Below are positions 619 to 63,940 of a stretch of DNA of 64,000 nucleotides, piece after piece. Numbering within the stretch: the stretch's first letter is position 1; each line of letters starts with the position of its first letter. The position numbers and the translations under genes are program-made. The DNA is from an uncultured virus (IMG/VR IMGVR_UViG_3300032167_006623) (Duplodnaviria; Heunggongvirae; Uroviricota; Caudoviricetes). The stretch lies in the IMG/VR virus record IMGVR_UViG_3300032167_006623; one strand, given 5' to 3'. Under the pieces are notes generated by a model that did no database searches, had not been told where the DNA came from, and saw only the letters and a program-made list of their open reading frames with translations.

Positions 619-2373
619 GTGACTGACAATACAGTTGACAAAACAGATATGCTGTCGCGAACCTTGAATGACGTCATTCATGAGACAACAATGTCATATC
701 TGAGCTTGATTGATAAGGATAACCCCCCGTCTCCACACACTATTGAACAGGAATTGCTATCCGACATTAATGATATGATAGCTCTTGAAAACCTGAATAT
801 ACCCAAAATCACTATGAAAGATGCAAATGGTCAGCCTATATATGATAAAAAGGGCAATCCTAAGACCATGCCTCTTCGTGCTCCTTGGCGCAGCATTGAA
901 CGATTGCTTCCTCAGCAGCTTGCTGATATCGTAATGTTCTTTCATCACGTAGTTCGTATTGACGCGGCTGAAAGCAATGTTGAGAGTGAAGAAGACTTGC
1001 TCGCCATTTATTGTGAATCAGGTTATAACAAGGGTATTTATGACACCAATGAAAGTGTATTATATCGTATCGTCAAAGAATATGATTATATGCTTGAAGA
1101 AAGAAAATTCAAAGAAGTATGCTTTACACTTAAATCATTGGCGCCCCGTAAACAAAGAACACATAATCGCAATCTTATTGCTGTTAATAACGGTATTTTT
1201 GATTATAAATCAAAGAATTTGTATCCTTTCACGCCCGATATGGTTTTTTTGGCTAAATCTCGTGTTGATTATAACCCGAATGCATCGCTTGTTACCATTC
1301 ACAATGATGATGACGGTACTGACTGGGATATTGAGACATGGATGTCAGAGCTTTCCGATGACCCTGAGATTGTCGAACTTCTTTGGCAGATGCTCGGTGC
1401 AATCATAAGGCCATTCGTCAGATGGAATCAATCCATATGGCTTTATTCCACGACAGGCAACAATGGTAAAGGAACATTATGTGAACTTATGCGTAATCTC
1501 TGTGGCAACGGAACACACACCAGTATCAAACTGGCTGAATTCAATAAAGACTTTGCTCTTGAACCGTTAATACACAGTAATGCTATTATTGTAGACGAAA
1601 ACGATGTAGGCTGTTATCTTGACAGCTTAGCTTCTCTTAAAGCTATTGTCACTAATGACATCGTTCAGATTAACCGTAAATATAAAAACTCGGTATCCTT
1701 CCGTTTTTGGGGCTTTATGGTGCAATGTATCAATGATTTACCCCGTATTCGTGACAAATCAGATTCTTTTTATAGAAGACAAATCCTTGTACCTATGGAT
1801 AAATGCTTTACCGGTGCAGAAAGACGTTATATCAAGGATGATTATCTGTCACGTCCTGAGGTTCTTGAATATGTTATGAAGAAAATTCTTCATACTGATT
1901 TTTATGCTTTATCTGTTCCTGACAGATGCCGTAATCTTCTTAATATGTACAAAGGTCTTAACGACCCTATTCGTGAATTTCTTGAAGAGTTCAAAGAACA
2001 GTTTACGTGGGATTTGATTCCTACCGAATTCTTGTATGACCTTTATAAAGCATGGTATGCCCGCTGTAATCCGTGCGGCAAGCCTGAAGGTCGAAATACA
2101 TTTAAGAAACAGATTGATATTCTGCTTTTGGAACCGGGTTTTTGCGAATATTGGGAATCATCTTCCAAAATGGTAAGAGTTTGCAACAAAATGTCGCAGC
2201 CTGAACCGTTGATTGTTCAATACAATCTTACATCATGGAAGAACCCAAGCTATACGGGCAATGACATAGATAAGATGTCAATGCCTCGACTGCTTACAGA
2301 CCGTTTCAGAGGTCTTGTAAGACGTGATAACAGCTTATCATCACAAAACGTTATAGACGCAGATGATGACTAA
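619..2373 (+). CDS. D5/P4-family primase-associated SF3 helicase
   Basis: D5_N-like LIAVNNGIFD, Walker A GNNGKGT, Walker B IIVDEN, motif C QCINDLP, SFYRR. No primase motifs seen in the N-terminus. Confidence 0.85.
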   Translation: MTDNTVDKTDMLSRTLNDVIHETTMSYLSLIDKDNPPSPHTIEQELLSDINDMIALENLNIPKITMKDANGQPIYDKKGNPKTMPLRAPWRSIERLLPQQLADIVMFFHHVVRIDAAESNVESEEDLLAIYCESGYNKGIYDTNESVLYRIVKEYDYMLEERKFKEVCFTLKSLAPRKQRTHNRNLIAVNNGIFDYKSKNLYPFTPDMVFLAKSRVDYNPNASLVTIHNDDDGTDWDIETWMSELSDDPEIVELLWQMLGAIIRPFVRWNQSIWLYSTTGNNGKGTLCELMRNLCGNGTHTSIKLAEFNKDFALEPLIHSNAIIVDENDVGCYLDSLASLKAIVTNDIVQINRKYKNSVSFRFWGFMVQCINDLPRIRDKSDSFYRRQILVPMDKCFTGAERRYIKDDYLSRPEVLEYVMKKILHTDFYALSVPDRCRNLLNMYKGLNDPIREFLEEFKEQFTWDLIPTEFLYDLYKAWYARCNPCGKPEGRNTFKKQIDILLLEPGFCEYWESSSKMVRVCNKMSQPEPLIVQYNLTSWKNPSYTGNDIDKMSMPRLLTDRFRGLVRRDNSLSSQNVIDADDD

Positions 2374-13174: not shown

Positions 13175-13202
13175 ATTGTGTGTTACTCCTCTGTCATATT
13201 TT

Positions 13203-32081: not shown

Positions 32082-32082
32082 T
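32053..32082 (+). promoter_or_regulatory. Promoter within the 3' end of the mazF-like gene
   Basis: TTGACA (32053), 18 bp, TATAAT (32077) with extended TG. Confidence 0.7.
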
Positions 32083-32087
32083 ATGCT

Positions 32088-32165
32088 TGTGAGTAAAATT
32101 TAAAAAAATTCATGACTCACACTCTCAACGGTCTGCTGAGTCTTACTCGGCTGACCGTTTTTTAT
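32088..32165 (+). ncRNA. Candidate short leader/antitoxin RNA ending in a terminator
   Basis: TGTGAGT/ACTCACA stem with an A-rich loop, then an AACGGTC..GACCGTT stem and T run. Located between the promoter and the ToxN-like genes. Confidence 0.45.
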
Positions 32166-32252
32166 TTCTGACTTAAAAGTCAGACGGATTATTATCAAAT
32201 TGGTCTATAATTTGATAATACTGTATTTTAAACGATAGAAAGGAACTTTAAC

Positions 32253-32711: not shown

Positions 32712-32746
32712 ACCATCACCACTATGACGCAAAGGAGTGTATCATC

Positions 32747-33400
32747 ATGGCAACAATTGTACCTTTCGGCTTATATGATGTTGACAGATATTACCTTGAT
32801 GAATTGCGTAAGGCTGACCCTCATGTTCCCAAATCTGATTACGAAGATGATGGTCAGCACCGCAAGTTTTACTGTGGTCCTGTTTATAATGATAAAGGTA
32901 TCAATTATTTTGTGCCCATTTCATCCAAGATAAAAAAACAGGATTATCTTGAACCATATGTGAGAATCATGAAAAATCCCGAAAACAAAAAAGAAATTGG
33001 ATGTCTCGATTTTCGTTATATGGTACCCGTCCCGTCAAAATATATTGCACCTCATGAAGATATGGATGCTGAAAAGCGCAATTCCAACGGTGAATTGTCA
33101 CATACAGCTATTTATGCAAGAATTTGCAATAATGCCAAAGCTCGTAAAAAAATTCATGAAACAGCCAAAGCTGCTTTTAATGATATAAGTGACAACAAAC
33201 CTATTGCAAAATCAAGCATAGCTTTCGGTAAAATGCAAAGAGTTGTAAGACAGGTTGACAGAGATATAACTCAAGGTAAAAGCTCATATAAACCTGACCC
33301 ATTCGTAACTGATTTACGAACTCGCTTTCAAAATACTATCGAAGGCTGGTCCACACCTGCTGTTTCAACACCACCTGATATCACTCCTGAAATAAAATAA
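32747..33400 (+). CDS. Type III TA ToxN/AbiQ-family endoribonuclease with C-terminal extension
   Basis: LYDVDRYYLDELRKADPHVP, RKFYCGPV, NYFVPISSK, GCLDFRYMVPVP. Confidence 0.8.
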   Translation: MATIVPFGLYDVDRYYLDELRKADPHVPKSDYEDDGQHRKFYCGPVYNDKGINYFVPISSKIKKQDYLEPYVRIMKNPENKKEIGCLDFRYMVPVPSKYIAPHEDMDAEKRNSNGELSHTAIYARICNNAKARKKIHETAKAAFNDISDNKPIAKSSIAFGKMQRVVRQVDRDITQGKSSYKPDPFVTDLRTRFQNTIEGWSTPAVSTPPDITPEIK

Positions 33401-34684: not shown

Positions 34685-34761
34685 CTACAAATCCATTGTG
34701 AATCATACAGCTTGTTTTAAGAACAAGCTGTATGACTCTATATTTCAGAAAGGACGGGCTT

Positions 34762-46929: not shown

Positions 46930-46976
46930 AACACAAGACAGACAACCTGTGAAACTTTATGAAAGGACAGATTCCA

Positions 46977-51430: not shown

Positions 51431-53104
51431 TTGAAGGAAATTATTATTGTAAATCCTGACAAATGTGTGGGCTGTAATGCTTGCGTAAGAAACTGTCCCG
51501 CACAAGAAGCAAATATTACAACAATGCGTGAAAATGGTACATTTGTGACCACAGTAAATCCTGATAAATGTATCTGCTGCGGTGAATGTGTAAGAAGCTG
51601 CACTCATGGAGCACGTGACTACAATGACGATACTCTTGATTTCATCAATCACATCAAAAGCAAAGAAGCGGCATTGCTTGTCACACCTGCTATCAAAGCT
51701 GCGTATCCAAACCAGTGGAAAGGCATTCTTGACTGGTTCAGACGAAAGAATGTCCGCATTTATGACGTTTCCTTTGGTGCTGATATATGTACATGGGCAC
51801 ATCTAAGAGCAATTGAGAACAAAGACGTAGGTAATGTCATTACACAGCCTTGCGCTGCTATTGTGAATTTCATTGAAACCTATGAGCCTGATTTGCTCAA
51901 GAATCTCTCCCCTATTCACAGTCCTATCATGTGTGAAGCAATCTATCTCAAGGATTATCTGCACATAACATCCCCGATTGCGGTACTGTCACCGTGTATT
52001 GCAAAGAAGACAGAATTTGAACGCACAGGTTACATTAAATACAACGTGACATTCAAAAAACTCATGGAGTATTTTGCAGAAAACAATATCAACATACCGC
52101 CCACAACGCATTCTGATAACATTGAGTATAACTTTGATGACCAACAGGGTCAGGTGGGTGCAATATATCCTCGTCCGGGCGGCTTGAGAGACAATTTATG
52201 GCTTCACAATCCTGATATCAATATTACAACTTCAGAAGGTGTACATAAAGTTTATCCTGAACTCAGAATGTATGCTAAAATGCCTGAATTCAAACATCCT
52301 GAAGTATTTGACGTTCTTTCCTGTGAGTTCGGTTGTAATGTTGGTCCGGGGTCAGGAACGAATCAGACAATATTTGATATTATGCATTCAATGTCTGTCG
52401 TTGAAAAAACATCAAAACAAAAGAGAAAAACCAAGTTTTTTGATACAACGAACGACAAGTTGTTCAAAAAGTTTGATGAAACTTTGAATGTGACCAATTT
52501 CGTAAGAAATTACAGACCAAGAGCCATTACTCCACTGCCGACAACAGCTGAACTTGATGCTGTGTTCTGTTCAATGGGTAAAACCACAATTGAATCAAGA
52601 AGCTACAACTGTCATGCCTGCGGCTATCCATCATGTCGGGATATGGCTACAGCTATTCACAGAGGACTCAACGTTCCTGATAACTGTATTGTATATGCCA
52701 AGAGTGTTCTTCATAGCAAACATGATACTATGTTTATGATGACAGAAAAATGTCGTGAATTTTCCGATAATCTTGTTCAGGATATCGATGCTATTCTTAA
52801 GAACATTCAGGCTATTAATAATGCATCCACTGTAACAAGTGAAAAGAGCAATGTTGTTCGTGAATTGCTGTCCAAGCTTGTTGAATTCTGCGACGCTAAT
52901 AAATACACTCTCAATGAAGAGGCTATCGAACGCATTATTATGATGCTGCAGACTGTAATCGGTGCATTCAAGCATCTCGACAACAGTGTGGCTATCACAA
53001 ACGAAAGCTCCGTTCGTATTGATAATTCCGTTTCCGAGCTCACAAGATTGGTTGAAGAGCTTAACGTAATGCTCCATGAAACAACCAATATTGACAAGTA
53101 TTAA
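51431..53104 (+). CDS. Paralogous [FeFe]-hydrogenase-like Fe-S sensor with short coiled-coil C-terminus
   Basis: Same Fe-S and H-domain motifs (TQPCAA, SPCIAKK.E, LSCEFGC) but no MCP hairpin signature. Confidence 0.85.
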   Translation: MKEIIIVNPDKCVGCNACVRNCPAQEANITTMRENGTFVTTVNPDKCICCGECVRSCTHGARDYNDDTLDFINHIKSKEAALLVTPAIKAAYPNQWKGILDWFRRKNVRIYDVSFGADICTWAHLRAIENKDVGNVITQPCAAIVNFIETYEPDLLKNLSPIHSPIMCEAIYLKDYLHITSPIAVLSPCIAKKTEFERTGYIKYNVTFKKLMEYFAENNINIPPTTHSDNIEYNFDDQQGQVGAIYPRPGGLRDNLWLHNPDINITTSEGVHKVYPELRMYAKMPEFKHPEVFDVLSCEFGCNVGPGSGTNQTIFDIMHSMSVVEKTSKQKRKTKFFDTTNDKLFKKFDETLNVTNFVRNYRPRAITPLPTTAELDAVFCSMGKTTIESRSYNCHACGYPSCRDMATAIHRGLNVPDNCIVYAKSVLHSKHDTMFMMTEKCREFSDNLVQDIDAILKNIQAINNASTVTSEKSNVVRELLSKLVEFCDANKYTLNEEAIERIIMMLQTVIGAFKHLDNSVAITNESSVRIDNSVSELTRLVEELNVMLHETTNIDKY

Positions 53105-53141: not shown

Positions 53142-53170
53142 TTGACAAAAATCGTAAAACGTGTTATAAT
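53142..53170 (+). promoter_or_regulatory. Consensus sigma-A promoter
   Basis: TTGACA, 17 bp, TATAAT with extended TG. Confidence 0.8.
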
Positions 53171-53226: not shown

Positions 53227-53991
53227 ATGGACGAAATCAGACTCCCAAGCACAGATTCTATGGAAGATGCAGGCCGTGATAAATCGACATACGATATCAG
53301 TGATGTAGCTGATGAAAATGCTGCCGATTATATCAACAATATGAAACTTGCTGCACAAAACAGTGATTTAGCGGCTAATCTTAAGCTATCTCAAAAATAT
53401 GCAAGAACTGCATATTTTAATGACCCGCAGGAAATAGCCAAAGCTGAAGCTGCAAGTGAACAAGCAAAAGCATATGCTGCTGAAAATCTTTCACAGATAA
53501 ATCTTGACACACTGTCAAACGGCGATTATGAAAAAATGCTTAATGCCACAATAAATAGTGCTGACCCTAAAGGCACTAATACTCTTGATGCTGCTTGTGA
53601 ACGGTCTGCTGTATTGAGACATGCCATTGGAGAATTGGATGATAAAAGCCTTCACGCTGTTCTTAACAGTCAGAATCCCAAATTTCAGGCTGAAATTATT
53701 GAAACAATAAAAGAACAGCATCCTGAAGCTCTTCCCTCAGAAGAACAGCTCAATGCGTATAAACAAGATATAAAAAAGGCACTTATAGAAGGTAAACCCC
53801 GTCCTGAGCTGACAGACATGAAATCTATAAATGCCAATATCAGTGCTAAAACAAGCGAAATATATAATAACCATGTTGAAGCTGCGATTAATGAACAAAC
53901 TGCTCAAAAAGCTGCGGCTACCCGTAGATTCAGCAACGGTCTTTCAGGGATATCAAGTATGTCTTCCCCTGATAATACATTCAATTATTAA
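53227..53991 (+). CDS. Hypothetical helical protein with RF tail
   Basis: RBS GAAAGGA; ends RRFSNGLSGISSMSSPDNTFNY. Confidence 0.75.
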   Translation: MDEIRLPSTDSMEDAGRDKSTYDISDVADENAADYINNMKLAAQNSDLAANLKLSQKYARTAYFNDPQEIAKAEAASEQAKAYAAENLSQINLDTLSNGDYEKMLNATINSADPKGTNTLDAACERSAVLRHAIGELDDKSLHAVLNSQNPKFQAEIIETIKEQHPEALPSEEQLNAYKQDIKKALIEGKPRPELTDMKSINANISAKTSEIYNNHVEAAINEQTAQKAAATRRFSNGLSGISSMSSPDNTFNY

Positions 53992-54089
53992 TTACATTAG
54001 GCTTAACGACAGCTACGAAATTCAATTCGTAGCTGTTTTTACGAGCATTAATGCTCGTCGGTGTTGATATAAAATAAACGTGAAAGGAA

Positions 54090-54503
54090 ATGTCATCAAT
54101 GATTATAGAAAATTGTACTGATTACTATGGTTTCTTAAACGGATTGGATATCGTTACAGCAGGAAAACTTGTTGAACAATTACAAGAACCTCTTTCTGAC
54201 AAACATGCTTTCAAAGGTTGCAATGTTGCAAGTGAAATAATTGAAGAAATCATGCGTCATCCTAACGTTGAAATATTATCCGGCACCGAAGCTGCCAAAA
54301 TAGCACCTTGGACAATAACATATACGGATATTAACTATATGCGTTTTGGATATCTTCCTGACGAACCTCGTCCTGAAGACCCGGCATATGCTGAATATGA
54401 TTGGTATATACCGACATTGATTCAATACACATATGCCAAATATCTTCTTCGCATCATAAAAGAAGGTTATCTCAAAGCAGAAGATATACCTGCACGAACA
54501 TAA
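54090..54503 (+). CDS. Hypothetical protein
   Basis: 137 aa ORF; start uncertain. Confidence 0.7.
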   Translation: MSSMIIENCTDYYGFLNGLDIVTAGKLVEQLQEPLSDKHAFKGCNVASEIIEEIMRHPNVEILSGTEAAKIAPWTITYTDINYMRFGYLPDEPRPEDPAYAEYDWYIPTLIQYTYAKYLLRIIKEGYLKAEDIPART

Positions 54504-54508
54504 AACAC

Positions 54509-54546
54509 GAAACCAGCCTTGATGGCTGGTTTCTTTTTTTTTATTT
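54509..54546. terminator. Terminator at the convergence of the two gene trains
   Basis: GAAACCAGCC-TTGAT-GGCTGGTTTC plus T run. Confidence 0.75.
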
Positions 54547-54819
54547 TGCAAAAACATTGTCAGTGTCTTTGTTTGGGTTATTTTTATTGACATCTGAGCC
54601 TATAGTGTTTAAGTCCACAGATACAAATCTCTGTTTGAGATTCGGATTTACAGTGCGAATAGAATCACCTGTAAAATCGCCATTGCCTATAGAAGAATAC
54701 GGTGAATGTCTGAACTTCATCTTATTTTTTTCGAACTGTATCTTCTCTCTTTCGACATCAGACATAAGCTCTTCGGGTTTCAAAATATCATTCCGTATAT
54801 TGAATTTCACATCTCCCAT
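54541..54819 (-). CDS. Hypothetical protein with RF tail
   Basis: RBS GAAGGGA. Confidence 0.65.
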   Translation of the reverse strand: MGDVKFNIRNDILKPEELMSDVEREKIQFEKNKMKFRHSPYSSIGNGDFTGDSIRTVNPNLKQRFVSVDLNTIGSDVNKNNPNKDTDNVFAK

Positions 54820-54834
54820 AATATTATCCCTTCA

Positions 54835-55383
54835 TTAGTCAATATCACCGGTATCATCAATATTATCGAATAAATCCTGAAATTTATCCTCAACATCAGA
54901 TGTAGCTGTTCCATAAACTAATTTATCAAATTTGTGACTATGTGTCAATGCTTTTTTGATAAATATATCATCTTCCATAGTTGCTGTTTTTATTGCAACA
55001 GCCTGCAATTCCTTTGCTGCTTTTGTGATTTCATCCCGATTTTGCATCTCTTTTGCATATTTTCGAGCCTTTCCGTTTCTTGCAGCCTGCTCTCTCGCCT
55101 GCTGCTCTTTGATTTGTTTCTCGCGTTCTCGTTTTTTCTTCCGCTTCCGTGTTCTTTTCAAACACGGAAGAGAAGATTTTTTACGAAAATCCGAAGCAAA
55201 TTTTATCTGTTTTTCAAACGACTTTTTTTCAGATATTTCATCGACACCTTCGACATTTTTATTGTCAATATCTTCAATGCTTTGCGTTAAAGCCTCATAT
55301 TCAGTCAAAACAGATTCTATTTCATTGTCGGTAATAGGCTCGTCGAGATTCATAACAGCTTTTTTATCAAAATTAAGAGCCAT
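54835..55383 (-). CDS. Hypothetical charged coiled-coil protein
   Basis: Start coupled to the upstream stop; basic stretch KRTRKRKKKR; ends KFQDLFDNIDDTGDID. Confidence 0.7.
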   Translation of the reverse strand: MALNFDKKAVMNLDEPITDNEIESVLTEYEALTQSIEDIDNKNVEGVDEISEKKSFEKQIKFASDFRKKSSLPCLKRTRKRKKKREREKQIKEQQAREQAARNGKARKYAKEMQNRDEITKAAKELQAVAIKTATMEDDIFIKKALTHSHKFDKLVYGTATSDVEDKFQDLFDNIDDTGDID

Positions 55384-55712
55384 TATTTTGACAAACCTGC
55401 AGATTCAGCTTCGGGTGCAGATGGTACATCCATCTTTATTGCGGAATCAAATCTGCTTGGACCCTTATTGACAGTTTTGGAATTATCAATGGTGACATTA
55501 CCGCTTACACTTGCGCCCTCAAGAGTGTGGTCACTTTTGTGGATATCACCCGCACCCACACTAAGATTAAGATTGAGGTCATCTGCTTTAACACCTACAC
55601 TGCCGGGTGCTGCATTTACACTGTCCCCACCGATTTCTTTGTCTTCCTTTCTTGGAAGAACTTCAACTTCCTCTGCCTGAACTACTTCAAGATTCTTGTT
55701 CTGATTTTCCAT
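55383..55712 (-). CDS. Hypothetical protein with RF tail
   Basis: RBS GAAAGGA. Confidence 0.7.
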   Translation of the reverse strand: MENQNKNLEVVQAEEVEVLPRKEDKEIGGDSVNAAPGSVGVKADDLNLNLSVGAGDIHKSDHTLEGASVSGNVTIDNSKTVNKGPSRFDSAIKMDVPSAPEAESAGLSK

Positions 55713-55735
55713 AACAAATTACCTATCCTTTCTTA

Positions 55736-56188
55736 TTATTCGCCCATTTCCATATCCATTGACGCTGACGCAGGTGCCGACTGCGGTGTGCTTGGAACGG
55801 AATTAAAACGATTCTTGAGATTAGTAAAGCCTTCTTTGATTTCAGCTTTTGTCTGGTCAATACCTGCATTGAAATCACTTACGGCTTTATTGATTTTGCC
55901 GGGTACAGAATTGTCATACATAGTTTTTGCAAACTTTTCAGCACCTTCTTTGAACTCAGCAATACGTTTATCCCTGATTTCTTCATCAGCTCTTACACGT
56001 TCCGCTGATTTGGGAACAAAAATAGGAGCTTTATTGTCCCCTGCTACATTAACTGTAACAGTTTCATCAAACTTGACATTTCCACCAACGTTTGCGTTTC
56101 TGAGCATATTATTGCTCGCATCGATATCGCCTGTTCCGAGCTGAACTTTACCATTGACATTTTCAGCCTGAGCTTTAATATCCGCCAT
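55736..56188 (-). CDS. Hypothetical protein with RF tail, partly paralogous to 55383..55712
   Basis: RBS GAAAGGA. Confidence 0.7.
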   Translation of the reverse strand: MADIKAQAENVNGKVQLGTGDIDASNNMLRNANVGGNVKFDETVTVNVAGDNKAPIFVPKSAERVRADEEIRDKRIAEFKEGAEKFAKTMYDNSVPGKINKAVSDFNAGIDQTKAEIKEGFTNLKNRFNSVPSTPQSAPASASMDMEMGE

Positions 56189-56603
56189 AACCAAAACCAT
56201 CCTTTCCCTTTTTCTCGTAACCGTCTTGTTCGAGCATTTCCTCTACGCCCAAGCCACGAGCCTTTGCTTCACGTTCAAGTGCTTTCTTGCGTATATCAGT
56301 TGCTGCATCTGTAATTTCCTGCTGCTCTTTGCGAATACGACTGTCTTCCATCACACCGTCAATCATACCGTTCACACCGCTTGTACGCACAAACGGAAGA
56401 TTAGCTTTGAGCACATCCTGAGCAAACATTTTATTGTTAGCTTTCATTTTTTCAGCAGCAAGCTCTGCGGCATAATCTGTCTTTTCGAGCTGTTTTCTGT
56501 CATCATCATTGAGATATCTCTCATCGATGCTTTTGGACATTTCTTCATGCTCATCGATTACCCTTTGCAAATCATCCCGCCGATTTCGCTTTTCTTCAGC
56601 CAC
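56175..56603 (-). CDS. Hypothetical charged protein
   Basis: RBS GAAAGGAG; probable GTG start. Confidence 0.7.
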   Translation of the reverse strand: MAEEKRNRRDDLQRVIDEHEEMSKSIDERYLNDDDRKQLEKTDYAAELAAEKMKANNKMFAQDVLKANLPFVRTSGVNGMIDGVMEDSRIRKEQQEITDAATDIRKKALEREAKARGLGVEEMLEQDGYEKKGKDGFGYGGY

Positions 56604-56631
56604 TATTATCACTCCTTTCATACATTATGGT

Positions 56632-59133
56632 TTAATCACCATAATCATCCTCATTGTATTGTTCCAAATCCTGCACTGTAATTGATGTCACAGGTTTATC
56701 AAATCTATTCATATCAATAGCTGATGACTCTGTTTGTGCATCAGATTTTACAACATCAGTGCTTGCAACTTCGATAGACTCACCTTTGTTATCGCTTACA
56801 TTAAGCTGAGAGTTCGTTTCTTTTTCATCAACTGTCGCTTCGACTTCATCATTTGCTTCTGAAATAGGCTTTTCTGTTACATCTTCGACATTACTAACCT
56901 TTTCTTCTTCCGCAATAGGTTTTTCAATAGACGCTACTATCTGCTCAACACGTTCATCAGATGTATTGACTATTGTAGGAGCTATGTCCTTATGTAATCC
57001 ATCCATTAAGGCTTTCATATTTGTAGCCTTTGATGTTGGTAAAGCCTTTTGCTCAGGTTTTTTATCTTCCAAGACAGGCTGAGGTTCAACATCTATGACT
57101 TCAGATTGCTTACTTTTTTCGATAACAGTCGCTTCTGCTTCAATGATTTCCGATTTTTGATTTTTAACAAAAACATCCTTAAATTTATCACACAGCTCTT
57201 TAGCCATCATCGCATTGTTTGCAATCTGTATCAAACCCTCTTGAAAATTAGCCAAAAAAGGCTTTTCATTTTTATCCGATTCCTTAATTTCCGTCTCATA
57301 AACAGCTGTTTCCTTGGTTTCTTCCTTGGTTTCTTCCTTGGTTTCTTCCTTGGTTTCTTCAGTAGATACTGTATTTTCAGAAACATTTTGTTTAATCTGA
57401 ACATCTTTACTATCAAGAACCTGCTGACCTGCATCTGTGATAACATAATCATTATCACACTTTGCTTTTTCAACATATTCACTTAATAAAGACTTCGCTT
57501 TATCAACCGTTATTTCATAATAACCGCTATCGCAATTATAACCATCAGACCAATTATAAAAATAACGGTCTTCAAGCTGATAAATTCTTGATGAATCAGA
57601 CCAACACTGGTCGCTATCATCGTGTTCATAATCATATTTGGCTAATAATGTACCCTTATTGAACAAATCAAGAGCCTTGTATTCCTCAAAAGTCATCTCG
57701 CGTTTATCTTGAACTGTTTGCTCATTTTCAGCTTCATTTTCAGCTTCATTTTCAGCTTCATTTTCAGCTTCATTTTCAGCTTCATTTTCAGCTTCATTTT
57801 CAGCTTCATTTTCAGCTTCATTTTCTGAAAGATTTTTTCCCTTAATTATGGCTGTCAATTCTTCAATTTTAGCCTCAAGCTCTCTGATACGACTATCTGT
57901 ATTCGCATCGCTGATTTGCTGCATGACATCATCATCAAAAGAATACCCATCCGTACCGTCTTCTTTCATCATTCGACTCCAAGTTTCAGGTATTTCCATA
58001 TTAACGAGCTTGCTTGCAGGACAATTTTGTTCAGCCCAGAATTTACAACCCATACGATTGGCTCTTTCGAATTCATAATCGAATTTGTCCATTTCATCAG
58101 GACAATCGGCTTCAGCTAATCTCCTTGTCGAATTCATAAGATACTGAAAACTATTGCTGTCAACAACCTTTTTCAAATCGGACTCTGATTTGCAAACAGA
58201 CATATATGCCCATTCTTTTTTAGCAAAATTTGAAAGAATATCTTCAACGCTTTCAACTTCACGAACCTGAAAATCCCAAGAATCAAGATTGTGACATTTA
58301 CCCTCTTTATCAGGGGACGAAACAAAATCATAAGATGTTCTGTACAAAGGCTTACCATGTACTCGAACCTCTTTGCCACCGGTTGTCATTACAGGCTCTC
58401 TTTTAGCAGATAGTCTTATATCACCTGTTGCCATACCCTGATATACGTCAGTGAGTGTTTCGTCATACATTATCTGCTCTTTCAGTTTTTTACTGAATGC
58501 TTTTGATAATGCCTGTTTATTTACACCATCAATCTCAGCCATATTGGTGAGATTAGCAACAGCTTTTTCATGCTCTTCTGTCAGACTTACAATATCTGCG
58601 CCGGGACGACGGCAATCGTTATAAAACTTTTTATCGTATGCGATACGCATCATTGCCGCTGATTCAGCAGTTAACGGCATACGACCCTCATTTGCTGTTT
58701 TAGTGATTTTATCAGATAAAACCTTAAGTTTCGGATGTTTTTCAGCCTGAGCCTCAAAAAATGGCTGAAATTTGCTTGCAATTTTTGCACTGAAACTCGG
58801 TCTGAGTTTGGCAGCAGATTTGTTACCTGCAATGGCTGTCATTTCATCACCCATGATTTCAGCCATATCACCCTCAGGTACATAATCTATGTACTTATCA
58901 ATTATACCGAGTTTCTTCCTGATATATTTATCATTTACTGCATAAGCTGATTCAGCATTAATGTCAAGACTTGCATATTGTGCAAAAGTCTTTTCATATT
59001 TCTTAAGCTCTTTTTCAAAAGCCTTAGCATTTTTATTCATCGTATCAACAGCTTTTCCACTGTAGTACGCACTTTCTAAACGCCCTTCTGTGTTATACAG
59101 CATCGGTATTATGCGTTCTCTTTTTTTAGCCAT
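56632..59133 (-). CDS. Large hypothetical protein with tandem repeats and RF tail
   Basis: About 830 aa; ENEA and EETK repeats; no signal peptide. Confidence 0.8.
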   Translation of the reverse strand: MAKKRERIIPMLYNTEGRLESAYYSGKAVDTMNKNAKAFEKELKKYEKTFAQYASLDINAESAYAVNDKYIRKKLGIIDKYIDYVPEGDMAEIMGDEMTAIAGNKSAAKLRPSFSAKIASKFQPFFEAQAEKHPKLKVLSDKITKTANEGRMPLTAESAAMMRIAYDKKFYNDCRRPGADIVSLTEEHEKAVANLTNMAEIDGVNKQALSKAFSKKLKEQIMYDETLTDVYQGMATGDIRLSAKREPVMTTGGKEVRVHGKPLYRTSYDFVSSPDKEGKCHNLDSWDFQVREVESVEDILSNFAKKEWAYMSVCKSESDLKKVVDSNSFQYLMNSTRRLAEADCPDEMDKFDYEFERANRMGCKFWAEQNCPASKLVNMEIPETWSRMMKEDGTDGYSFDDDVMQQISDANTDSRIRELEAKIEELTAIIKGKNLSENEAENEAENEAENEAENEAENEAENEAENEAENEQTVQDKREMTFEEYKALDLFNKGTLLAKYDYEHDDSDQCWSDSSRIYQLEDRYFYNWSDGYNCDSGYYEITVDKAKSLLSEYVEKAKCDNDYVITDAGQQVLDSKDVQIKQNVSENTVSTEETKEETKEETKEETKETAVYETEIKESDKNEKPFLANFQEGLIQIANNAMMAKELCDKFKDVFVKNQKSEIIEAEATVIEKSKQSEVIDVEPQPVLEDKKPEQKALPTSKATNMKALMDGLHKDIAPTIVNTSDERVEQIVASIEKPIAEEEKVSNVEDVTEKPISEANDEVEATVDEKETNSQLNVSDNKGESIEVASTDVVKSDAQTESSAIDMNRFDKPVTSITVQDLEQYNEDDYGD
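57308..57360 (-). repeat. 12-bp tandem repeat encoding EETK
   Basis: About 4 copies of GAAGAAACCAAG (minus strand). Confidence 0.9.
57722..57825 (-). repeat. Perfect 12-bp tandem repeat encoding ENEA
   Basis: 8 full copies of TCATTTTCAGCT plus a partial copy. Confidence 0.95.
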
Positions 59134-59156
59134 GATGACCACCCTCTCTTTGAATA

Positions 59157-59603
59157 TTACATATCAGGAATATCACTGTCACCTGTATATTCCTGTCCTT
59201 TGACATCCAAAATATTTGAACCGAGAGTTTTCAAGAAGTTCGCTTCTTGTCCATTACGCTCGCATTTATTGACATAGTCAATTGTCCCCGTGACGTCTTC
59301 AGCTATACCATTGACAAATTTAGGAGTAATCCATGCACCTGCTATTGCACCGCCGATTTTACCGATTGCACCGAATCTTTCACCAAGTTTGGCACCAAGC
59401 ACTGCTCCCCCGATACCTGTACCAACTGTGACAAGTAATTTCTTATCATCATAATTATCCGATGCTTCTGTGTTCATTTTATCTTCTTTGATATCATCAT
59501 CAATAGCTGCTGCGAGACCGTAATCTTGCCAATCGTTGATGAACTCTTTACCTTTACCAACAATATCGTCCCAACCGCCTTTTATTGCACCAAGTATACC
59601 CAT
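59157..59603 (-). CDS. Glycine-zipper membrane protein
   Basis: GTGIGGAVLGAKLG...GKIGGAIAG. Confidence 0.75.
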   Translation of the reverse strand: MGILGAIKGGWDDIVGKGKEFINDWQDYGLAAAIDDDIKEDKMNTEASDNYDDKKLLVTVGTGIGGAVLGAKLGERFGAIGKIGGAIAGAWITPKFVNGIAEDVTGTIDYVNKCERNGQEANFLKTLGSNILDVKGQEYTGDSDIPDM

Positions 59604-59622
59604 CTGTAATCATCCTTTCTTA

Positions 59623-60042
59623 TTAAGTGATATCGGGGTCAGGGTCAGCTGTTTCAACAGCTTGATACGACTGCCCGTCTTTTGTTGCAAAATTTCCGAC
59701 TATTCTTGAGAAACGTTCTTTGAGATTAAAGCCCTTTTCAAGCTTACCGTCCTCAACATCCTGATTGACGGATTTCATAGCATCTCCGATATCATCGAAC
59801 AGCTCCGGACCGCATTTGTACATAGCAACTGTGCCTATCGCAGCGCCAAGAAACTTTGCAAATGGTTGGTCGTGACCTATGAACTTACCTGCAAACCAAC
59901 CTGAAACACCACCGATAGCAGCCGCACCTGCATAATGAGATATTCGTCCTGCCGCTCCGCCGTCTTCCTTGAGCCAGTCTGAAAAATCAAACTCTTTTTG
60001 CATCTCCGTAGTCGGACCCATTACAGCTGTATTCTCTACCAT
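59623..60042 (-). CDS. Glycine-zipper membrane protein (paralog)
   Basis: AGAAAIGGVSGWFAG...FLGAAIG. Confidence 0.75.
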   Translation of the reverse strand: MVENTAVMGPTTEMQKEFDFSDWLKEDGGAAGRISHYAGAAAIGGVSGWFAGKFIGHDQPFAKFLGAAIGTVAMYKCGPELFDDIGDAMKSVNQDVEDGKLEKGFNLKERFSRIVGNFATKDGQSYQAVETADPDPDIT

Positions 60043-60110
60043 ATTACCATATCCTTTCATGTTTTATTATCATCCATACACAGCCTACGGCTGTGTATGG
60101 ATTCTGTTTG

Positions 60111-62408
60111 TTAGTCATCCGTAACATCAAGACCATTATCAGGACCCTGAGTTTCACTACCCTGATAAATATTCGCAGCCTCATTGAACCTATTTAACAA
60201 ATTCTTTTTGTTATTATTGATAGCCATGGCATCTTTGATATCTTTACCTGTGATATCATCACCGGCCTGATAGTCACCAACATCAATCTGAAGATTGTTT
60301 GCCTCTGTAGGTTCAACATATCCCATTGCGTCTTTCATAGTCTTGCTCTGTGGAATATTCACATAGGGGTCAAACGTAGGCATATTCACATAAGGGTCGA
60401 AAGTATTTTCTACCGTCATATCCATACCCGTAGCAGAAATCATATTCGGCTTTTCCTTTTCAGGAGTTTTTTCAGGCTTTGGCTCTTCGACAGGTTTACG
60501 CTCAAGATTATTATCCTCAGTATTTTCCTCAATCTGGTCATCGAGAGACTTACGCTCAGAGTTTCTGCCTGCAGCTTCAAAGCCCTCTTGACCTGCACTG
60601 AAGCTTTCCTGCGGACCGTCAGGCTCATGCAGCTTATCCCACTCTTCCTGAGTGTATTTCTGAGTAATCATTTCACCCTTTTCATTCTTCTCAGAAATAG
60701 TATACTGTCCGTCTTTGAACGTCTCCTCGCGATACATCTCACCCTTATAATACGCACGGTTATAGCTCTCCGAAACCTCAGCACCGTCGTAGCTTACGCC
60801 TCTTTCACGCATCTTGGTCTTACCATCATCTTCATACTCAATCCAACGGTCACTTGTGAGCTTCTTTGTTTCAGGGTCAAAAGTCTGAATATTCATATCA
60901 GCAAGCTTACCGTCTATGCCATATATCTGAGTCTTTCTGTAACCCTCTTTTTCAGTCATAAGGCATGTGAGATTGCCGTTTCTGTCGTAATTCTGAGTAC
61001 GGATGCTGCCGTCGCCCATATCATAGACTTTTTCTCCTTCAGCTTCTTTAATCAGCTTTGGATACTCAGGCTTATCCTCAGTTTTGCCGCTTGCAAGCTG
61101 TTCCTTTGTTTTCAATGCCTCAGCAGCCTGCTTCTCTGCATTGATTTTAGCCATGTCAGTATTTACAACAGCCTGTACGGCAGCTGCGTCATAGCCTGCT
61201 TCTTTCAAAGCATTGGCTCTCTCAATGCCATTGCCGTAATCACCTCTGATAACGGACTGAGCAGCCTCTTTATTAACCTGTGCGTTCCACTCTTCCTGAG
61301 TGCCTTTGAAATCAGCGGACATTTTATACGGGTCGGGCTTAGCGTTTTCATCAACAATGCCTAAGTCAGATTTATACTGAGCATAATTGCTCATACGCTC
61401 CTGAGCTCTCTTAGCGTCATCCGCACTGTTTACTCTTAAATTACCGCCGCCCTCTTCCAAAAGCTTTTCGGTTTCTTCAATATAAGCCTTTTTCTCAGCT
61501 TCGGTCATTTCCTTGACCTCACCTGTTTCCTCAGGCTCAGGCTTAGCGTTATATTCCTTGGTTTCAACGGTCTTGGTCTCTGTTACCGTTTCTTTAGCTT
61601 CGGGCTCGGTTTTCGCAGGCTCAGTCTTTTCGGGAGCTGCCGTTTCAGCTTCTGCAGGCTTATCTCCTCTCAGGCTGTTGATAAAATCATTCTTTTCCTG
61701 AAACTTACGACCATCCTCTGCGTTCTGAATATTATTGGCTTCCTTGGCTTCATATTTATCAAAATATGCAACCTGCTTTTCAGCCCAAGCCTCAGCCTGT
61801 TTGTTTATTACATCCTCAGAAGAACCGATAGCCATTGAGTAAGCAAGCTCTTTTTCGGCTATCATCACATCAAGCTGTGCTGACATCTGTTCGTATTCAG
61901 CGCCAAGCTTTGCAGCACTTGCTTCCTTCATATTTTTCAAAGCTTCGATTTCATCTCTCTGAGTTTCAAGAGCCGTTCTTGCTTCAACAGAAGCCTCATC
62001 ATTGCCTGTTATTGCAGCAATCTGCTCATTAAAACCGATACGCTTTTCATTGGCTCTCGTATGGTCAGTATATGTATTCAAAGCCGTAGAGCCGTCAAGA
62101 CCGTATTTCTCAAGGTCCTTGTCATCTCCGCCGAACTCAAGGGCATGAGCATAACCCTTGTCATACTCAGCGGCGTCATACGTTTCATATGACGCAGTTT
62201 CAAGTGCGTCCGCCTGCTCAGCCAAAGTAGCTCCCGCATCACTGAACGCATTGTATTTGATTCTCTCAAGCTTTTGTGTCGGGTCAATATTGCCATTGCT
62301 GTCAGTACAAGCAGCTTCGATTTCAGCAAGCTCCTCAGGAGTCATCTTGCTGTTATACTCATTCATTATCTTGTCCTGATAAGCCTGTGCCATAGGATTA
62401 AGTGCCAT
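60111..62408 (-). CDS. Large acidic protein with a Cpl-7 (CW_7)-like cell-wall-binding repeat and RF tail
   Basis: AAQSVIRGDYGNGIERANALKEAGYDAAAVQAVVN matches the CW_7 pattern; YDRNG/YGIDG/YEDDG beta repeats; no signal peptide. Confidence 0.8.
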   Translation of the reverse strand: MALNPMAQAYQDKIMNEYNSKMTPEELAEIEAACTDSNGNIDPTQKLERIKYNAFSDAGATLAEQADALETASYETYDAAEYDKGYAHALEFGGDDKDLEKYGLDGSTALNTYTDHTRANEKRIGFNEQIAAITGNDEASVEARTALETQRDEIEALKNMKEASAAKLGAEYEQMSAQLDVMIAEKELAYSMAIGSSEDVINKQAEAWAEKQVAYFDKYEAKEANNIQNAEDGRKFQEKNDFINSLRGDKPAEAETAAPEKTEPAKTEPEAKETVTETKTVETKEYNAKPEPEETGEVKEMTEAEKKAYIEETEKLLEEGGGNLRVNSADDAKRAQERMSNYAQYKSDLGIVDENAKPDPYKMSADFKGTQEEWNAQVNKEAAQSVIRGDYGNGIERANALKEAGYDAAAVQAVVNTDMAKINAEKQAAEALKTKEQLASGKTEDKPEYPKLIKEAEGEKVYDMGDGSIRTQNYDRNGNLTCLMTEKEGYRKTQIYGIDGKLADMNIQTFDPETKKLTSDRWIEYEDDGKTKMRERGVSYDGAEVSESYNRAYYKGEMYREETFKDGQYTISEKNEKGEMITQKYTQEEWDKLHEPDGPQESFSAGQEGFEAAGRNSERKSLDDQIEENTEDNNLERKPVEEPKPEKTPEKEKPNMISATGMDMTVENTFDPYVNMPTFDPYVNIPQSKTMKDAMGYVEPTEANNLQIDVGDYQAGDDITGKDIKDAMAINNNKKNLLNRFNEAANIYQGSETQGPDNGLDVTDD

Positions 62409-62425
62409 TTTACATCATTCCTTTC

Positions 62426-62704
62426 TTATTTTTCAAATGATTTATCGTTATCTTTTTCGGGTTTGATATCATCAGCCAAACCCTGAGCCGAAAGAAATCT
62501 ATTTGAGTTTATTTTTGTATGAGCATTGCTTTCGATTCTTTCGATTTCAGCTTTCATCTCGTAGTCTTCAGGTCTCATGAGCTTCGGCTTCGGATTATTA
62601 GCTTCATTCATCATCTCGTAGTCTTCGGGTCGCATAAATCTTGGCTTCGGATTATTGACCTCATTCATCATTTCATAATCCTCAGGTCTCATGAACTTCG
62701 GCAT
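62426..62704 (-). CDS. Small protein of 19-aa repeats with RF tail
   Basis: PKFMRPEDYEMMNEVNNPK about 2.5 times; RBS GAAAGGGG. Confidence 0.75.
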   Translation of the reverse strand: MPKFMRPEDYEMMNEVNNPKPRFMRPEDYEMMNEANNPKPKLMRPEDYEMKAEIERIESNAHTKINSNRFLSAQGLADDIKPEKDNDKSFEK

Positions 62705-62721
62705 GATTTATCGCCCCTTTC

Positions 62722-63126
62722 TCAGACTCCCATACGTCTTGCCATTTTGCGTGACATATATACATCGTCTTCAGCCTGAGCCTCAGGCTCTTTGATATTT
62801 GATGTCAGGTCGACATCATATCTTGAACGCTTGCCTGTAGCCGCTTCCTCAACATCTCCTGCAAGCTTGACTTCGACTTCAGTGACATCTCTGTCAACCT
62901 TTCCTGCAATCTCAGTAATATCTCTCTCAGTTGACTGAGCTTTCATAGCTGCCGCTTCCTCAATATCAGCTGCAAGCATACCTGTGGTCTGCTCTACGCT
63001 GTCTCCGAGAGTATGGATTTTCTCCTGAGAATCGAGAACATCCGCTTCTTCCTTTGCCATTTCCTCTTCAAGCTGTCGCTGACGCTCCCTGTCGCTTATT
63101 TGCTTGGTCATTTCCTGTTCAGTCAT
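62722..63126 (-). CDS. Hypothetical acidic protein with internal repeats
   Basis: LAADIEEAA/LAGDVEEAA and ERDITE/DRDVTE; RBS GAAAGG. Confidence 0.75.
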   Translation of the reverse strand: MTEQEMTKQISDRERQRQLEEEMAKEEADVLDSQEKIHTLGDSVEQTTGMLAADIEEAAAMKAQSTERDITEIAGKVDRDVTEVEVKLAGDVEEAATGKRSRYDVDLTSNIKEPEAQAEDDVYMSRKMARRMGV

Positions 63127-63228
63127 GATTAATTACCTGCCTTTCATATATTTTTAACGTGACAAGATGCATATCTTGTCTGAGTTTATCATCACGAGCA
63201 ATGCGCTCGGATTATTTATTTTACGTAC

Positions 63229-63852
63229 TTATGTCAGGAAATCAAAAACATCGTCTACCGTTGTTCCTGAATAATCATCTTCACCTGCTACAATGTCTTT
63301 AAAGCGTTCAACAAGATTTGGTTTCTCATCTTTCTCTGCCTTTTCAGCAGCTATTCTCTGAGCTTCATAATTGTCCTCAAGAGCTTGTTTTGATATCGCA
63401 AGACGAGCTTCCGAGTTTTCAAGAGACTGCTCGCGCTTACGAGCTGTTTCATAGCTTTGCGTCATTGCCGCTTTTTCCTGTTCTTTGTGCTTATCATAAT
63501 TTTTATAATATTCTACTATTTGAGCATCGCTGCCGAGAGCATCTATCTTCAGATTACTCAATCCCTGATTAACACTTTGAGCTATTGGCAGTGGTACGCC
63601 GGCATTATATGCAATACTTCCCGCAACCTCATCAGCACTTGCTGTGCCTAAGACAGTTCGTTCCATAAGCTCGCGTTCTAAATCCGTGTGCTCTTTTTTC
63701 GACTGTGCATAAGACATTTTTTCTCTTTCAAGAACCAAATGAGTATCCTTACCGCTTTCTACTGCTCTTTCTTTAATTTTTTCATCAGGATATTCGTGTT
63801 TATCCAGCCAAGCTTTTGCTTTTTTATCGTATCTCCTGTCTAAAATTCCCAT
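63229..63852 (-). CDS. Hypothetical protein with RF tail
   Basis: RBS GAAAGGA; first gene of the minus-strand train. Confidence 0.75.
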   Translation of the reverse strand: MGILDRRYDKKAKAWLDKHEYPDEKIKERAVESGKDTHLVLEREKMSYAQSKKEHTDLERELMERTVLGTASADEVAGSIAYNAGVPLPIAQSVNQGLSNLKIDALGSDAQIVEYYKNYDKHKEQEKAAMTQSYETARKREQSLENSEARLAISKQALEDNYEAQRIAAEKAEKDEKPNLVERFKDIVAGEDDYSGTTVDDVFDFLT

Positions 63853-63910: not shown

Positions 63911-63940
63911 TTGACAAACGGTGACATAGTGTGTTATAAT
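63911..63940 (+). promoter_or_regulatory. Sigma-A promoter reading out of the window
   Basis: TTGACA, 18 bp, TATAAT with extended TG. Confidence 0.7.

Follow-up and report, generated by a model that had tools for sequence, protein, structure and literature searches.

To our knowledge, next to nothing has been established on the way in which conjugation systems of Gram-positive bacteria choose their protein substrates. In other systems, the Agrobacterium VirB/VirD4 substrates VirE2, VirE3 and VirF carry an Arg-rich C-terminal signal, and among phages the N4 virion RNA polymerase and the cargo of crAss-like phages are delivered by the virion. The Dot/Icm signal, ascribed to work by Nagai 2005, Huang 2011 and Meir 2018, is reportedly a Glu-rich 'E-block' with a hydrophobic residue at -3 or -4, read by DotL-DotM. 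According to the excerpts considered, the F-like plasmid pED208 moves ParA, ParB, SSB, PsiB and PsiA (PMC8406263), and the XVIPCD of Xanthomonas type IV secretion system (T4SS) effectors is bound by an all-alpha domain of VirD4 (PMC8740702). Virion-delivered phage proteins are also treated in an excerpt of a further source, which describes primases as a class known to travel in conjugation, Sog and TraC accompanying the DNA (PMC5512222). For Gram-positive T4SSs, the part of a December 2025 review considered here reports limited recruitment evidence and DNA transfer as nearly all of the known functions, and the term 'translocation signal' has no occurrence in that part (PMC12857230).

The window analysed here is the whole stretch of 64,000 nt from an uncultured virus record (IMG/VR IMGVR_UViG_3300032167_006623). 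In its region 53.2-63.9 kb, 9 of 14 ORFs encode proteins in which an RF dipeptide is followed by 19-28 residues up to the C-terminus (given below as RF plus that number). An earlier note on this DNA had pointed out the tail, and when the cluster ORFs were rechecked all of its RF positions and counts were found to be correct, including 8 of the 12 minus-strand ORFs. On the plus strand, the gene for a 254-aa acidic protein (53227..53991; RF+19 at 53926-53988) has no Pfam match and follows its own promoter, a perfect sigma-70-like sequence at 53142-53170; a bidirectional terminator (54509-54533) lies between this gene and the last gene of the minus-strand operon. The operon starts with a 207-aa protein (63229..63852; RF+23 at 63232-63306), followed by a 134-aa protein with a basic end (62722..63126), a 92-aa protein with three 19-aa repeats (57-nt repeats; 62426..62704; RF+22 at 62429-62500), a 765-aa protein (60111..62408; RF+24 at 60114-60191), and two glycine-zipper-like proteins of 145 aa (59623..60060; RF+28 at 59626-59715) and 148 aa (59157..59603). 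Further along are an 836-aa protein (56632..59142; RF+22 at 56635-56706), a second 148-aa protein (56175..56621), and proteins of 154 aa (55736..56200; RF+22 at 55739-55810), 109 aa (55383..55712; RF+21 at 55386-55454), 182 aa (54835..55383) and finally 92 aa (54541..54819; RF+27 at 54544-54630). As the note had stated, the 182-aa and 134-aa proteins carry variants, KF+14 (54838-54885) and RY+31 (62725-62823), and both 148-aa proteins are devoid of R[FY]; the glycine-zipper-like one has NF+25, and its final stretch is acidic and hydrophobic and contains Pro. Outside the cluster, the tail is found on a D5/P4-type primase-helicase (619..2373, plus strand; RF+21 at 2302-2370) and on a ToxN-like protein (32747..33400, plus strand; RF+23 at 33323-33397), where it sits on a 50-aa C-terminal extension.

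The position of RF is biased beyond chance. With the RF frequency of the 64-kb window itself as baseline, the binomial probability of at least 9 tails in 14 proteins is 9.7e-12, which bears out the enrichment near the C-terminus that the earlier note had proposed to check. When the 14 proteins were shuffled 20,000 times, 0.17 had an RF tail on average and 3 at the maximum, against the 9 observed. Among the 3,403 residues of the cluster there are 12 RF dipeptides, nine of which fall 19-28 residues from an end, and in the 836-aa and 765-aa proteins the RF of the tail is the sole one. In the remaining window ORFs, RF is found 19-24 residues from the end in 4 of 57, among them an 86-aa ORF (30713-30973) and an SbcCD-like ORF (34732-38643), in the latter of which it looks like a chance occurrence. 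For the Arg of the motif the tails use the codons AGA, AGG, CGT and CGC, for the Phe TTT and TTC, and no DNA repeat was found beneath the tail sequences of the cluster. The four kinds of Arg codon and the lack of such a repeat indicate selection at the protein level, and a DNA- or RNA-level motif was dropped as an explanation for the same two reasons. The constraint is thus on the protein.

The core of the tail is roughly [ND]-L-x-x-R-[FY]-[DANS]-x-[PAS]-[IV]; after it come 15-25 residues of polar or acidic type, usually with one hydrophobic residue at -3. This residue, which the note had described as lying near the end, is present at -3 in 62% of 13 window proteins and 52% of 23 proteins in relatives, compared with 26% and 32% of controls; positions -4 to -8 are acid-rich with few hydrophobics. 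The combination of acidic block and hydrophobic -3 occurs in 16 of 36 cluster proteins and 28 of 179 controls (P 3e-4). The last 22 residues have a mean net charge of -3.4 versus -1.8 elsewhere, an acidity that partly mirrors that of the whole proteins, because the cluster proteins are acidic throughout (pI 4.4-5.2 in 11 of 14). None of the 14 has an N-terminal hydrophobic h-region, in agreement with the claimed lack of Sec signals, and none contains a 19-residue window above 1.5 on the Kyte-Doolittle scale. For nearly all of them Pfam, PHROGs and NCBIfam gave no family, and there was no Pfam match to WXG100 or LXG families in the cluster. The 765-aa protein, which lacks a signal peptide, does contain the cell-wall-binding repeat attributed to it, a peptidoglycan-binding CW_7 (E 5.6e-12). 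The 836-aa protein has a conserved all-alpha N-terminal domain (residues ~10-390) and a disordered, repeat-rich C-terminal half; in its AlphaFold2 model the N-terminal domain is confident and pLDDT is below 50 over residues 662-836. With this model, Foldseek found no PDB match at E<=0.001, PDB sequence searches gave coiled-coil or low-complexity noise only, and the ESM Atlas gave no usable match. The tail is best explained as a short linear motif within a disordered C-terminal region.

The note had also raised the question of whether homologues keep the tail, and the answer differs between families. For the 836-aa protein, [RK][FY] is found 15-35 residues from the end in 15 of 18 full-length homologues (28-62% identity), and three lack the motif, as do 2-4 cluster proteins. 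For the 207-aa protein, RF is present in one 40%-identical homologue and absent from five others (45-78% identical), although the extreme C-terminal end is invariant in all seven sequences; since these close homologues lack it, RF is not obligatory. The 145-aa protein has homologues in the loci L004 and L005 ending with RF+28 and RF+30; the L004 counterpart of the 134-aa protein ends with RF+30; and the counterparts of the CW_7 protein in L004 and in G002, a relative described below, have CW_7 together with RF+22 or RF+38. Among ORFs of the syntenic clusters, the tail occurs in 6 of 7 in L004, 4 of 5 in G002 and 3 of 11 in L005. When the clusters were pooled, 21 of 36 proteins had R[FY] at a distance of 15-40 residues from the end, versus 29 of 179 controls (Fisher P 5e-7). 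Meanwhile, a profile of the flanks only was trained on relatives and used to score 215 [RK][FY] sites. The C-terminal sites of the window took ranks 1-3 and 9 of the top 12 (Mann-Whitney P 4e-6), a test that is not fully independent because the training set contained homologues of window proteins. The first three places went to the 109-aa, the 154-aa and the repeat-containing 92-aa protein, and ranks 5, 9 and 11 to the ToxN-like protein, the primase and the KF variant of the 182-aa protein. With a profile from the nine window tails alone, the relaxase site was weakly discriminated (first to third of 8-13 sites) and the primase site was not singled out. A Megablast search with 53-64 kb of the window gave no match among plasmids and phages, viral and metagenome contigs contained no exact copy of a 32-mer taken from the end of the window, and locus searches with the 765-aa or 836-aa protein singly found nothing; the related loci were reached only via an alignment query (A2). 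The 836-aa family occurs in 2 of 401 sampled genomes in the order of G001, G001 itself included; plasmid contigs with this family are seldom binned.

The relatives are G002, a 198.5-kb IMG/VR record with about 70% nucleotide identity, a contig of an Oscillospiraceae MAG and a Streptomyces plasmid. In all three, a VirD4-type coupling protein (matches to PF02534/PF12696 and NF045973) and a single-polypeptide, fused beta/beta' RNA polymerase immediately precede the homologous cluster, the polymerase standing between coupling protein and tail cluster. In G002 and the Streptomyces plasmid the order within the operon is MobL relaxase (E 3e-50), ClpB-like ATPase with inteins, VirD4-like protein, RNA polymerase and tail cluster; in the Oscillospiraceae contig it is coupling protein, polymerase and tail cluster. 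A wall hydrolase (Phage_lysozyme2) has a strong match in the Streptomyces plasmid (1.4e-37) and a weak one in G002 (7.8e-4), and the G002 transfer region encodes multi-pass membrane proteins. Between them, the relatives contain the relaxase, coupling protein, wall hydrolase and membrane proteins of a Gram-positive-type conjugative T4SS. G002 also encodes an actin-like partition protein. The possibility that G002 is a linear replicon with telomeres was rejected, its terminal repeats looking like adapter. The window itself, which ends at position 64000, holds no coupling protein, relaxase, channel or secretion gene. The earlier note had regarded the cluster as the substrate island of a machine whose genes lie beyond the window and had named genes by which to find it. 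The VirD4-type protein beside the cluster and the MobL relaxase, both in relatives, agree with this; neither the VirB4 nor the FtsK/EssC that it had named was detected in G002, which is complete. PF12846 and PF03135 revealed no VirB4-family ATPase there, and conventional Walker A motifs were only within known proteins; a divergent ATPase may still be encoded. Because no VirB4-type ATPase was found, the transfer machine is either atypical or incompletely recognised. The FtsK/SpoIIIE-type EssC ATPase of type VII secretion, searched for with PF01580, was likewise not found in G002. The motif is not carried by every protein of the operon: the coupling protein and the ClpB-like ATPase are without it, the polymerase tail has no RF in G002 and L004, and among the G002 transfer-region membrane proteins a motif-like site occurs only in the 2053-aa one (RY+16).

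Whether a relaxase has the tail was another point raised in the note, and the G002 relaxase ends with RF+29. Among its homologues, [RK][FY]D lies 15-40 residues from the end in 35 of 36 relaxases at >=59% identity versus 2 of 82 more distant ones, the expectation from the internal frequency being 0.026 per protein; the relaxase tails end basic, unlike the acidic tails of the cluster. The primase carries the tail both in the window and in G002, where the orthologue has RY+23. One close relaxase homologue lies on a contig of 188,868 bp, and the longest contig with the 207-aa protein is likewise of 188,868 bp. The case for a transfer machine in the replicon of the window depends on this shared figure and on relatives at about 70% DNA identity. 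Metagenomic homologues numbered 820 for the coupling-protein piece (E<=1e-5) and 1338 for the relaxase (E<=1e-10). The window is predicted to belong to a megaplasmid of the conjugative type, some 190-200 kb in size, with a host that is probably a member of the Clostridia.

Compared with known systems, the tail appears to resemble C-terminal T4SS signals with a different, sequence-defined anchor. Generally, it shares with such signals a location in the last 20-40 residues, disorder, unrelated substrates (including the relaxase in relatives) and a VirD4-type neighbour in relatives. As in Dot/Icm, the last 20-35 residues are disordered and net acidic with a lone hydrophobic near -3, the acidic block and hydrophobic -3/-4 being found together, and the proteins that share the signal are unrelated, with a link to a coupling protein of the VirD4 family. 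However, the window tail has an anchor, L-x-x-R-[FY], placed 19-30 residues before the end, and the conjugation system of the relatives is of the Gram-positive type, with a MobL relaxase. The Agrobacterium signals are likewise short, C-terminal, unstructured tags that are portable and read by VirD4, portability and reading by VirD4 being proposals for the window tail; in contrast to those Arg-rich signals, the window tails are of the opposite charge and of another motif, with a mean of -3.4 over the last 22 residues. The XVIPCD, too, is a C-terminal module that unrelated substrates of a single T4SS have in common, but it is folded and of ~120 residues, whereas the window tail is disordered and 20-30 residues long. 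The kinds of maintenance and establishment proteins moved with pED208, Sog and TraC, primase included, match the kinds tagged here; those systems are Gram-negative, and the excerpts considered define no common sequence signal for them. In concept, the N4 and crAss-like cargo is similar in that polymerase and helpers come in with the invading element itself, although the route proposed here is conjugation and not a capsid.

Taken together, the observations suggest, with somewhat better than even probability in our judgement, that the tail is a recruitment or translocation signal read by the coupling protein. It is unlikely, in comparison with known degrons, that the tail is instead a degron or initiation tag by which an element-encoded AAA+ machine (ClpX/ClpP, FtsH or ClpB-like) limits protein lifetime. 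Degrons of ClpXP and FtsH have conserved non-polar residues at the extreme C-terminus, which the tails do not show; they end variably and mostly in acidic residues, with the conserved part 19-30 residues further upstream, and the tagged relaxase, primase and wall-binding protein and the site in a transfer operon fit transport better. Candidate machines are nevertheless at hand, since the window has genes for FtsH (8759-10663) and for a ClpB-like ATPase (24105-25961), G002 has a ClpX-like protein and a ClpB-like ATPase within the transfer operon, and disordered tails of 20-30 residues are suited to engagement by an unfoldase. If an unfoldase fed the T4SS, that would amount to a version of the translocation reading and not to a rival. 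Alternatively, the tail might dock proteins on a donor hub (the relaxosome, the plasmid RNA polymerase or an envelope-spanning mating complex) without transport. The transfer-operon linkage applies equally to docking, the wall-binding and glycine-zipper proteins could be structural, and with no VirB4 recognised, unknown proteins must build the channel. The soluble primase and the ToxN-like RNase are tagged too, though, and the CW_7 protein without a signal peptide needs some exit from the cytoplasm, so that docking also seems improbable.

A third kind of role is very unlikely, in which the tail is a packaging signal that brings the proteins, as cargo or for ejection, into the capsid of a giant phage or into an encapsulin-like shell. 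IMG/VR lists G002 as a virus, and G002 has one major-capsid homologue (phrog_422 E 3e-59; 32-34% identical to annotated capsid genes); but the 'terminal repeats' that led to the virus classification resemble sequencing adapter, and the terminase-named matches fall on the intein-bearing ClpB-like protein. Portal, tail protein and true terminase are absent among the 150 G002 ORFs of at least 120 aa, leaving little support for the ejection apparatus that the note had offered as an option, and a relaxase, a coupling protein and an actin-like partition protein are present. In addition, of the eight listed matches for plasmids with capsid homologues and the genera tallied for 28 records, none belonged to the actinobacterial relatives bearing shared tails of their own. 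That the tail has no function, being a composition bias or a copy spread among neighbours by recent recombination, is hardly credible. In favour of it, low complexity and acidity extend over the whole of the cluster proteins and the flanks are weakly conserved; set against this are a binomial P of ~1e-11 with no shuffle above 3 of 14, mixed Arg codon families over no DNA repeat, and a motif that persists in four other elements and in homologues with as little as 28-40% identity.

Under the preferred reading, a signal for the coupling protein, the motif would recruit soluble plasmid proteins to the VirD4-type protein of the element, possibly via the ClpB-like unfoldase encoded beside it. The recruited set would comprise the relaxase, the primase, the ToxN-like RNase, the peptidoglycan-binding protein and the small glycine-zipper proteins, which may then be exported or passed to the recipient along with the DNA. 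More doubtful, yet possible, is that this is the first sequence-defined protein-translocation signal of Gram-positive-type conjugation, marking an 'establishment kit' sent with the DNA. Such a kit might include the relaxase, primase, RNase, wall-binding and membrane-active proteins and perhaps the single-polypeptide RNA polymerase; its wall-binding and membrane-active members may open the recipient envelope, and the whole could be an analogue of phage ejection proteins. If this is true, such plasmids would send helper proteins to establish in new hosts, and the tag would give a sequence rule to predict the transferred proteome of a large uncultured megaplasmid family. With a tag on a dozen proteins and the relaxase, substrate choice becomes directly testable. 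A literature search found no description of the RF motif or of this plasmid family, and no YonO-type polymerase on conjugative plasmids.

The Gordonia plasmid pGKT2 has the same gene set with a different common C-terminal ending. Under the more doubtful reading, co-evolution of the signal and the oversized coupling protein would account for tails that differ between lineages, RF-acidic here and [GSD]-P-x-[LM] in pGKT2. By this pattern, which was defined post hoc, 7 of 26 proteins of the pGKT2 transfer region, including the relaxase, share the ending, compared with 0 of 35 in another region.

The cluster between 53.2 and 63.9 kb consists of 14 ORFs, two on the plus strand and 12 on the minus strand. 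The two plus-strand ORFs lie under a perfect sigma-70-like promoter (53142-53170), and the 12 minus-strand ORFs are closely packed in one operon closed by a bidirectional terminator (54509-54533). In nine of the 14 ORFs, an Arg-Phe dipeptide (RF) lies 19-28 residues from the C-terminus, exactly the set of tails that the earlier note had listed from the sequence alone; among the remaining five, one each carries KF, RY and NF followed by 14, 31 and 25 residues, respectively, and two are without the motif. The RF tails are enriched over background, with a binomial probability of 9.7e-12 for at least nine in 14 at the RF frequency of the window itself, and 20,000 shuffles of the cluster proteins never gave more than three. 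In addition, nine of the 12 RF dipeptides of the cluster (3,403 residues) fall inside the 10-residue tail band, and the 836-aa and 765-aa proteins contain no RF other than that of the tail. Four codons, representing both Arg codon families, encode the tail Arg, and the tails do not coincide with any DNA repeat; the constraint therefore acts on the protein.

The cluster proteins are acidic and, as had been noticed before, appear to lack Sec signals, having neither N-terminal hydrophobic regions nor transmembrane-grade segments. Family matches are nearly absent, the exception being a CW_7 peptidoglycan-binding repeat in the tailed 765-aa protein, which accounts for the cell-wall-binding repeat of the earlier note. 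The 836-aa gene contains in-frame tandem 12-nt units in about four (57307-57369) and about nine copies (57698-57860), and three in-frame 57-nt units (62554-62724) make up most of a 92-aa protein; these repeats could be length-variable regions.

Searching with a profile of the 836-aa proteins brought up related loci on an Oscillospiraceae MAG contig (L004/L019), on a Clostridia MAG contig (L005), and on a 198,537-bp record (G002, identical to L006 and L020) that occurs in a metagenome and in IMG/VR, and whose shared genes are about 65-78% identical to those of the window. The 836-aa homologues have about 470 N-terminal residues in common and diverge beyond, yet [RK][FY] is kept 15-35 residues from the end in 15 of the 18 full-length members (12 R[FY] and 3 KF); the other three have the R without the aromatic residue. 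The motif is found in six of seven ORFs in the syntenic cluster of L004, in 4/5 of G002 and in 3/11 of L005, and, when pooled, R[FY] at 15-40 residues from the end occurs in 21 of 36 cluster proteins versus 29 of 179 controls (P 5e-7). RF is dispensable in some homologues. In the 207-aa family, the window protein and one 40%-identical homologue have it but five closer ones do not, while the final nine positions hardly vary across the seven members; therefore, RF is not the whole signal. When only the nine tails of the window are used, the resulting profile is weak. A flank-only profile from the relatives, whose training set contained homologues of window proteins, placed C-terminal sites of the window at ranks 1-3 and in nine of the top 12 among 215 [RK][FY] sites, the high-ranked ones including the tails of the primase and a ToxN-like protein. 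The tail consensus is about [ND]-L-x-x-R-[FY]-[DANS]-x-[PAS]-[IV], which would fit a short amphipathic turn. Counted from the C-terminus, position -3 is hydrophobic in 62% of the window proteins and 52% of those of the relatives, versus 26% and 32% of controls, within surroundings that are acid-rich and poor in hydrophobics.

In G002, a topoisomerase is followed by several membrane proteins and a lysozyme-like giant protein, and then by a MobL relaxase. Next come a ClpB-like ATPase that contains LAGLIDADG inteins, a 722-aa protein and a VirD4-like coupling protein encoded by two ORFs. A 1985-aa single polypeptide bearing RNA-polymerase motifs of both beta and beta' stands between these and the cluster homologues (a CW_7 protein, a glycine-zipper protein, the 836-aa family and small proteins). 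The ClpB-like ATPase, interrupted by LAGLIDADG/Hint inteins, and the VirD4-like gene of the transfer operon are covered by L033:11466-15575 and L034:11-5404 in G002 and by L003:26425-30720 in a Streptomyces plasmid. In both G002 and the MAG contig, the VirD4-like gene is divided between two ORFs (1209 and 457 aa), and some homologues have a LAGLIDADG domain at the site of the split. The order of coupling protein, polymerase and cluster is repeated in the MAG contig and the Streptomyces plasmid. The polymerase (1850-1985 aa; L004:4-4992, L034:6365-12322 in G002, and L003:14302-19848) holds beta (PF00562) and beta' (PF00623) motifs in one polypeptide, and in both Firmicutes and Streptomyces relatives its gene separates the coupling protein from the tail cluster. 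A plasmid-borne polymerase inside a transfer operon seems to be undescribed. Position 64000, where the window stops, lies shortly upstream of the first gene of the cluster, and the window's own machine is therefore out of view; since a second perfect sigma-70-like promoter (63911-63940) faces the right-hand end and thus points away from the cluster, genes may be arranged differently at this edge than in G002. The earlier proposal of a substrate island of a conjugation or secretion machine thus stands in part: relatives have a coupling protein beside the cluster, but VirB4 was not found in the complete relative G002.

The question whether a relaxase has the tail could be answered in G002, where 29 residues separate the motif of the relaxase from the C-terminus. 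Among the matches listed of at least 600 aa, [RK][FY]D occurs 15-40 residues from the end in 35 of 36 relaxases at 59% identity or more and in two of 82 more distant ones; the chance expectation from the internal frequency is 0.026 per protein. RF followed by 29 residues also occurs in a MobL relaxase that shares 75% identity with the G002 enzyme; its longest contig is 188,868 bp, likewise the length of a contig encoding a protein identical to the 207-aa protein of the window, a hint that this is the window's own relaxase. In all, the coupling protein has 820 homologues and the relaxase 1338, representing several hundred related elements. The window's primase has the motif, and so does that of G002. 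The motif was not found in the coupling protein or the ClpB-like ATPase, and among the transfer-region membrane proteins of G002 a motif-like site is present only in the 2053-aa one (RY, 16 residues from the end).

Judged from sequence, the data lean modestly towards the tail being a recruitment or translocation signal for a VirD4-type coupling protein. The coupling protein would read the tail of candidate substrates, perhaps assisted by the neighbouring ClpB-like unfoldase. C-terminal signals of T4SS are established for Gram-negative systems. Like the Dot/Icm signal, the tail is disordered, acidic and hydrophobic at -3; however, it has a defined R[FY] anchor and belongs to a MobL, Gram-positive-type system. 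T4SS substrates are reported to require unfolding (PMC5826034). In the literature outside subscription journals, including passages of a 2025 review and of Iyer et al. 2017, we found neither a C-terminal signal of this kind for Gram-positive conjugation nor a description of this family of plasmids with a beta/beta' polymerase of their own.

Two other roles appear unlikely, namely that the tail is an AAA+ degron and that it docks its proteins onto an envelope complex or a hub on the donor side. That the tail has no function is hardly credible, and that it directs packaging into a capsid or encapsulin is very improbable. G002 has a single homologue of phage major capsid proteins (L024:7907-9046, phrog_422), 32-34% identical to annotated capsid genes and with an extra 100-aa N-terminus; no portal, terminase or tail genes were found nearby, and the protein may form an encapsulin-like shell or be a relic. 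Among the 150 ORFs of at least 120 aa in G002 neither a portal nor a tail module was found, and its terminase-named matches land on the intein-bearing ATPase.

In pGKT2, a plasmid of the cultured relative Gordonia sp. KTR9 that is transferable by mating, the pattern [GSD]-P-x-[LM], defined post hoc, closes seven of 26 proteins of the transfer region, versus none of 35 in another part of the plasmid; the relaxase and the product of the gene after the polymerase position are among the seven. This ending differs from the RF tail, in the way that a signal evolving together with its reader would.

IMG/VR calls G002 a complete linear virus on the basis of 48-bp inverted terminal repeats (L022:1-48 and the last 48 bases of L031), which look like an Illumina Nextera adapter; the virus label would therefore rest on an artefact. 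Because, in addition, both ends of G002 are joined in the window (12973-13816), the element is most likely circular. G002 also encodes an actin-like partition protein.

Elsewhere in the window are genes for a D5/P4 primase-helicase, a 1015-aa polymerase-like protein, SNF2 and UvrD helicases, HU, FtsH, MoxR-like and ClpB-like ATPases, an SbcCD fusion, MazF, two ToxN-like proteins and two hydrogenase-like chemoreceptor-signalling proteins. The primase, polymerase-like, helicase and ATPase modules show synteny with three large actinobacterial plasmids, namely Gordonia pGKT2, one of 639 kb from Streptomyces and one from Rhodococcus. In the comparison of 619-28698 with loci L001 and L002, the shared order is primase, 1015-aa polymerase-like protein, SNF2 helicase, nucleoid protein, MoxR-like ATPase, 568-aa protein, ClpB-like ATPase and UvrD-like helicase. 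Since the window is low-GC and these actinobacterial plasmids are high-GC, the synteny points to an old cross-phylum plasmid backbone. Several TGTCACA-like heptamers upstream of the primase gene (1-100) could be iterons or operator sites. At 31677-33400, a MazF-like toxin gene precedes the two ToxN-like genes, the second with an RF tail on a 50-aa extension. Two plasmid-borne paralogues (46959-48848 and 51431-53104) have 4Fe-4S and [FeFe]-hydrogenase-like domains fused to a C-terminal part, which in the first matches the methyl-accepting chemotaxis signalling domain (PF00015).
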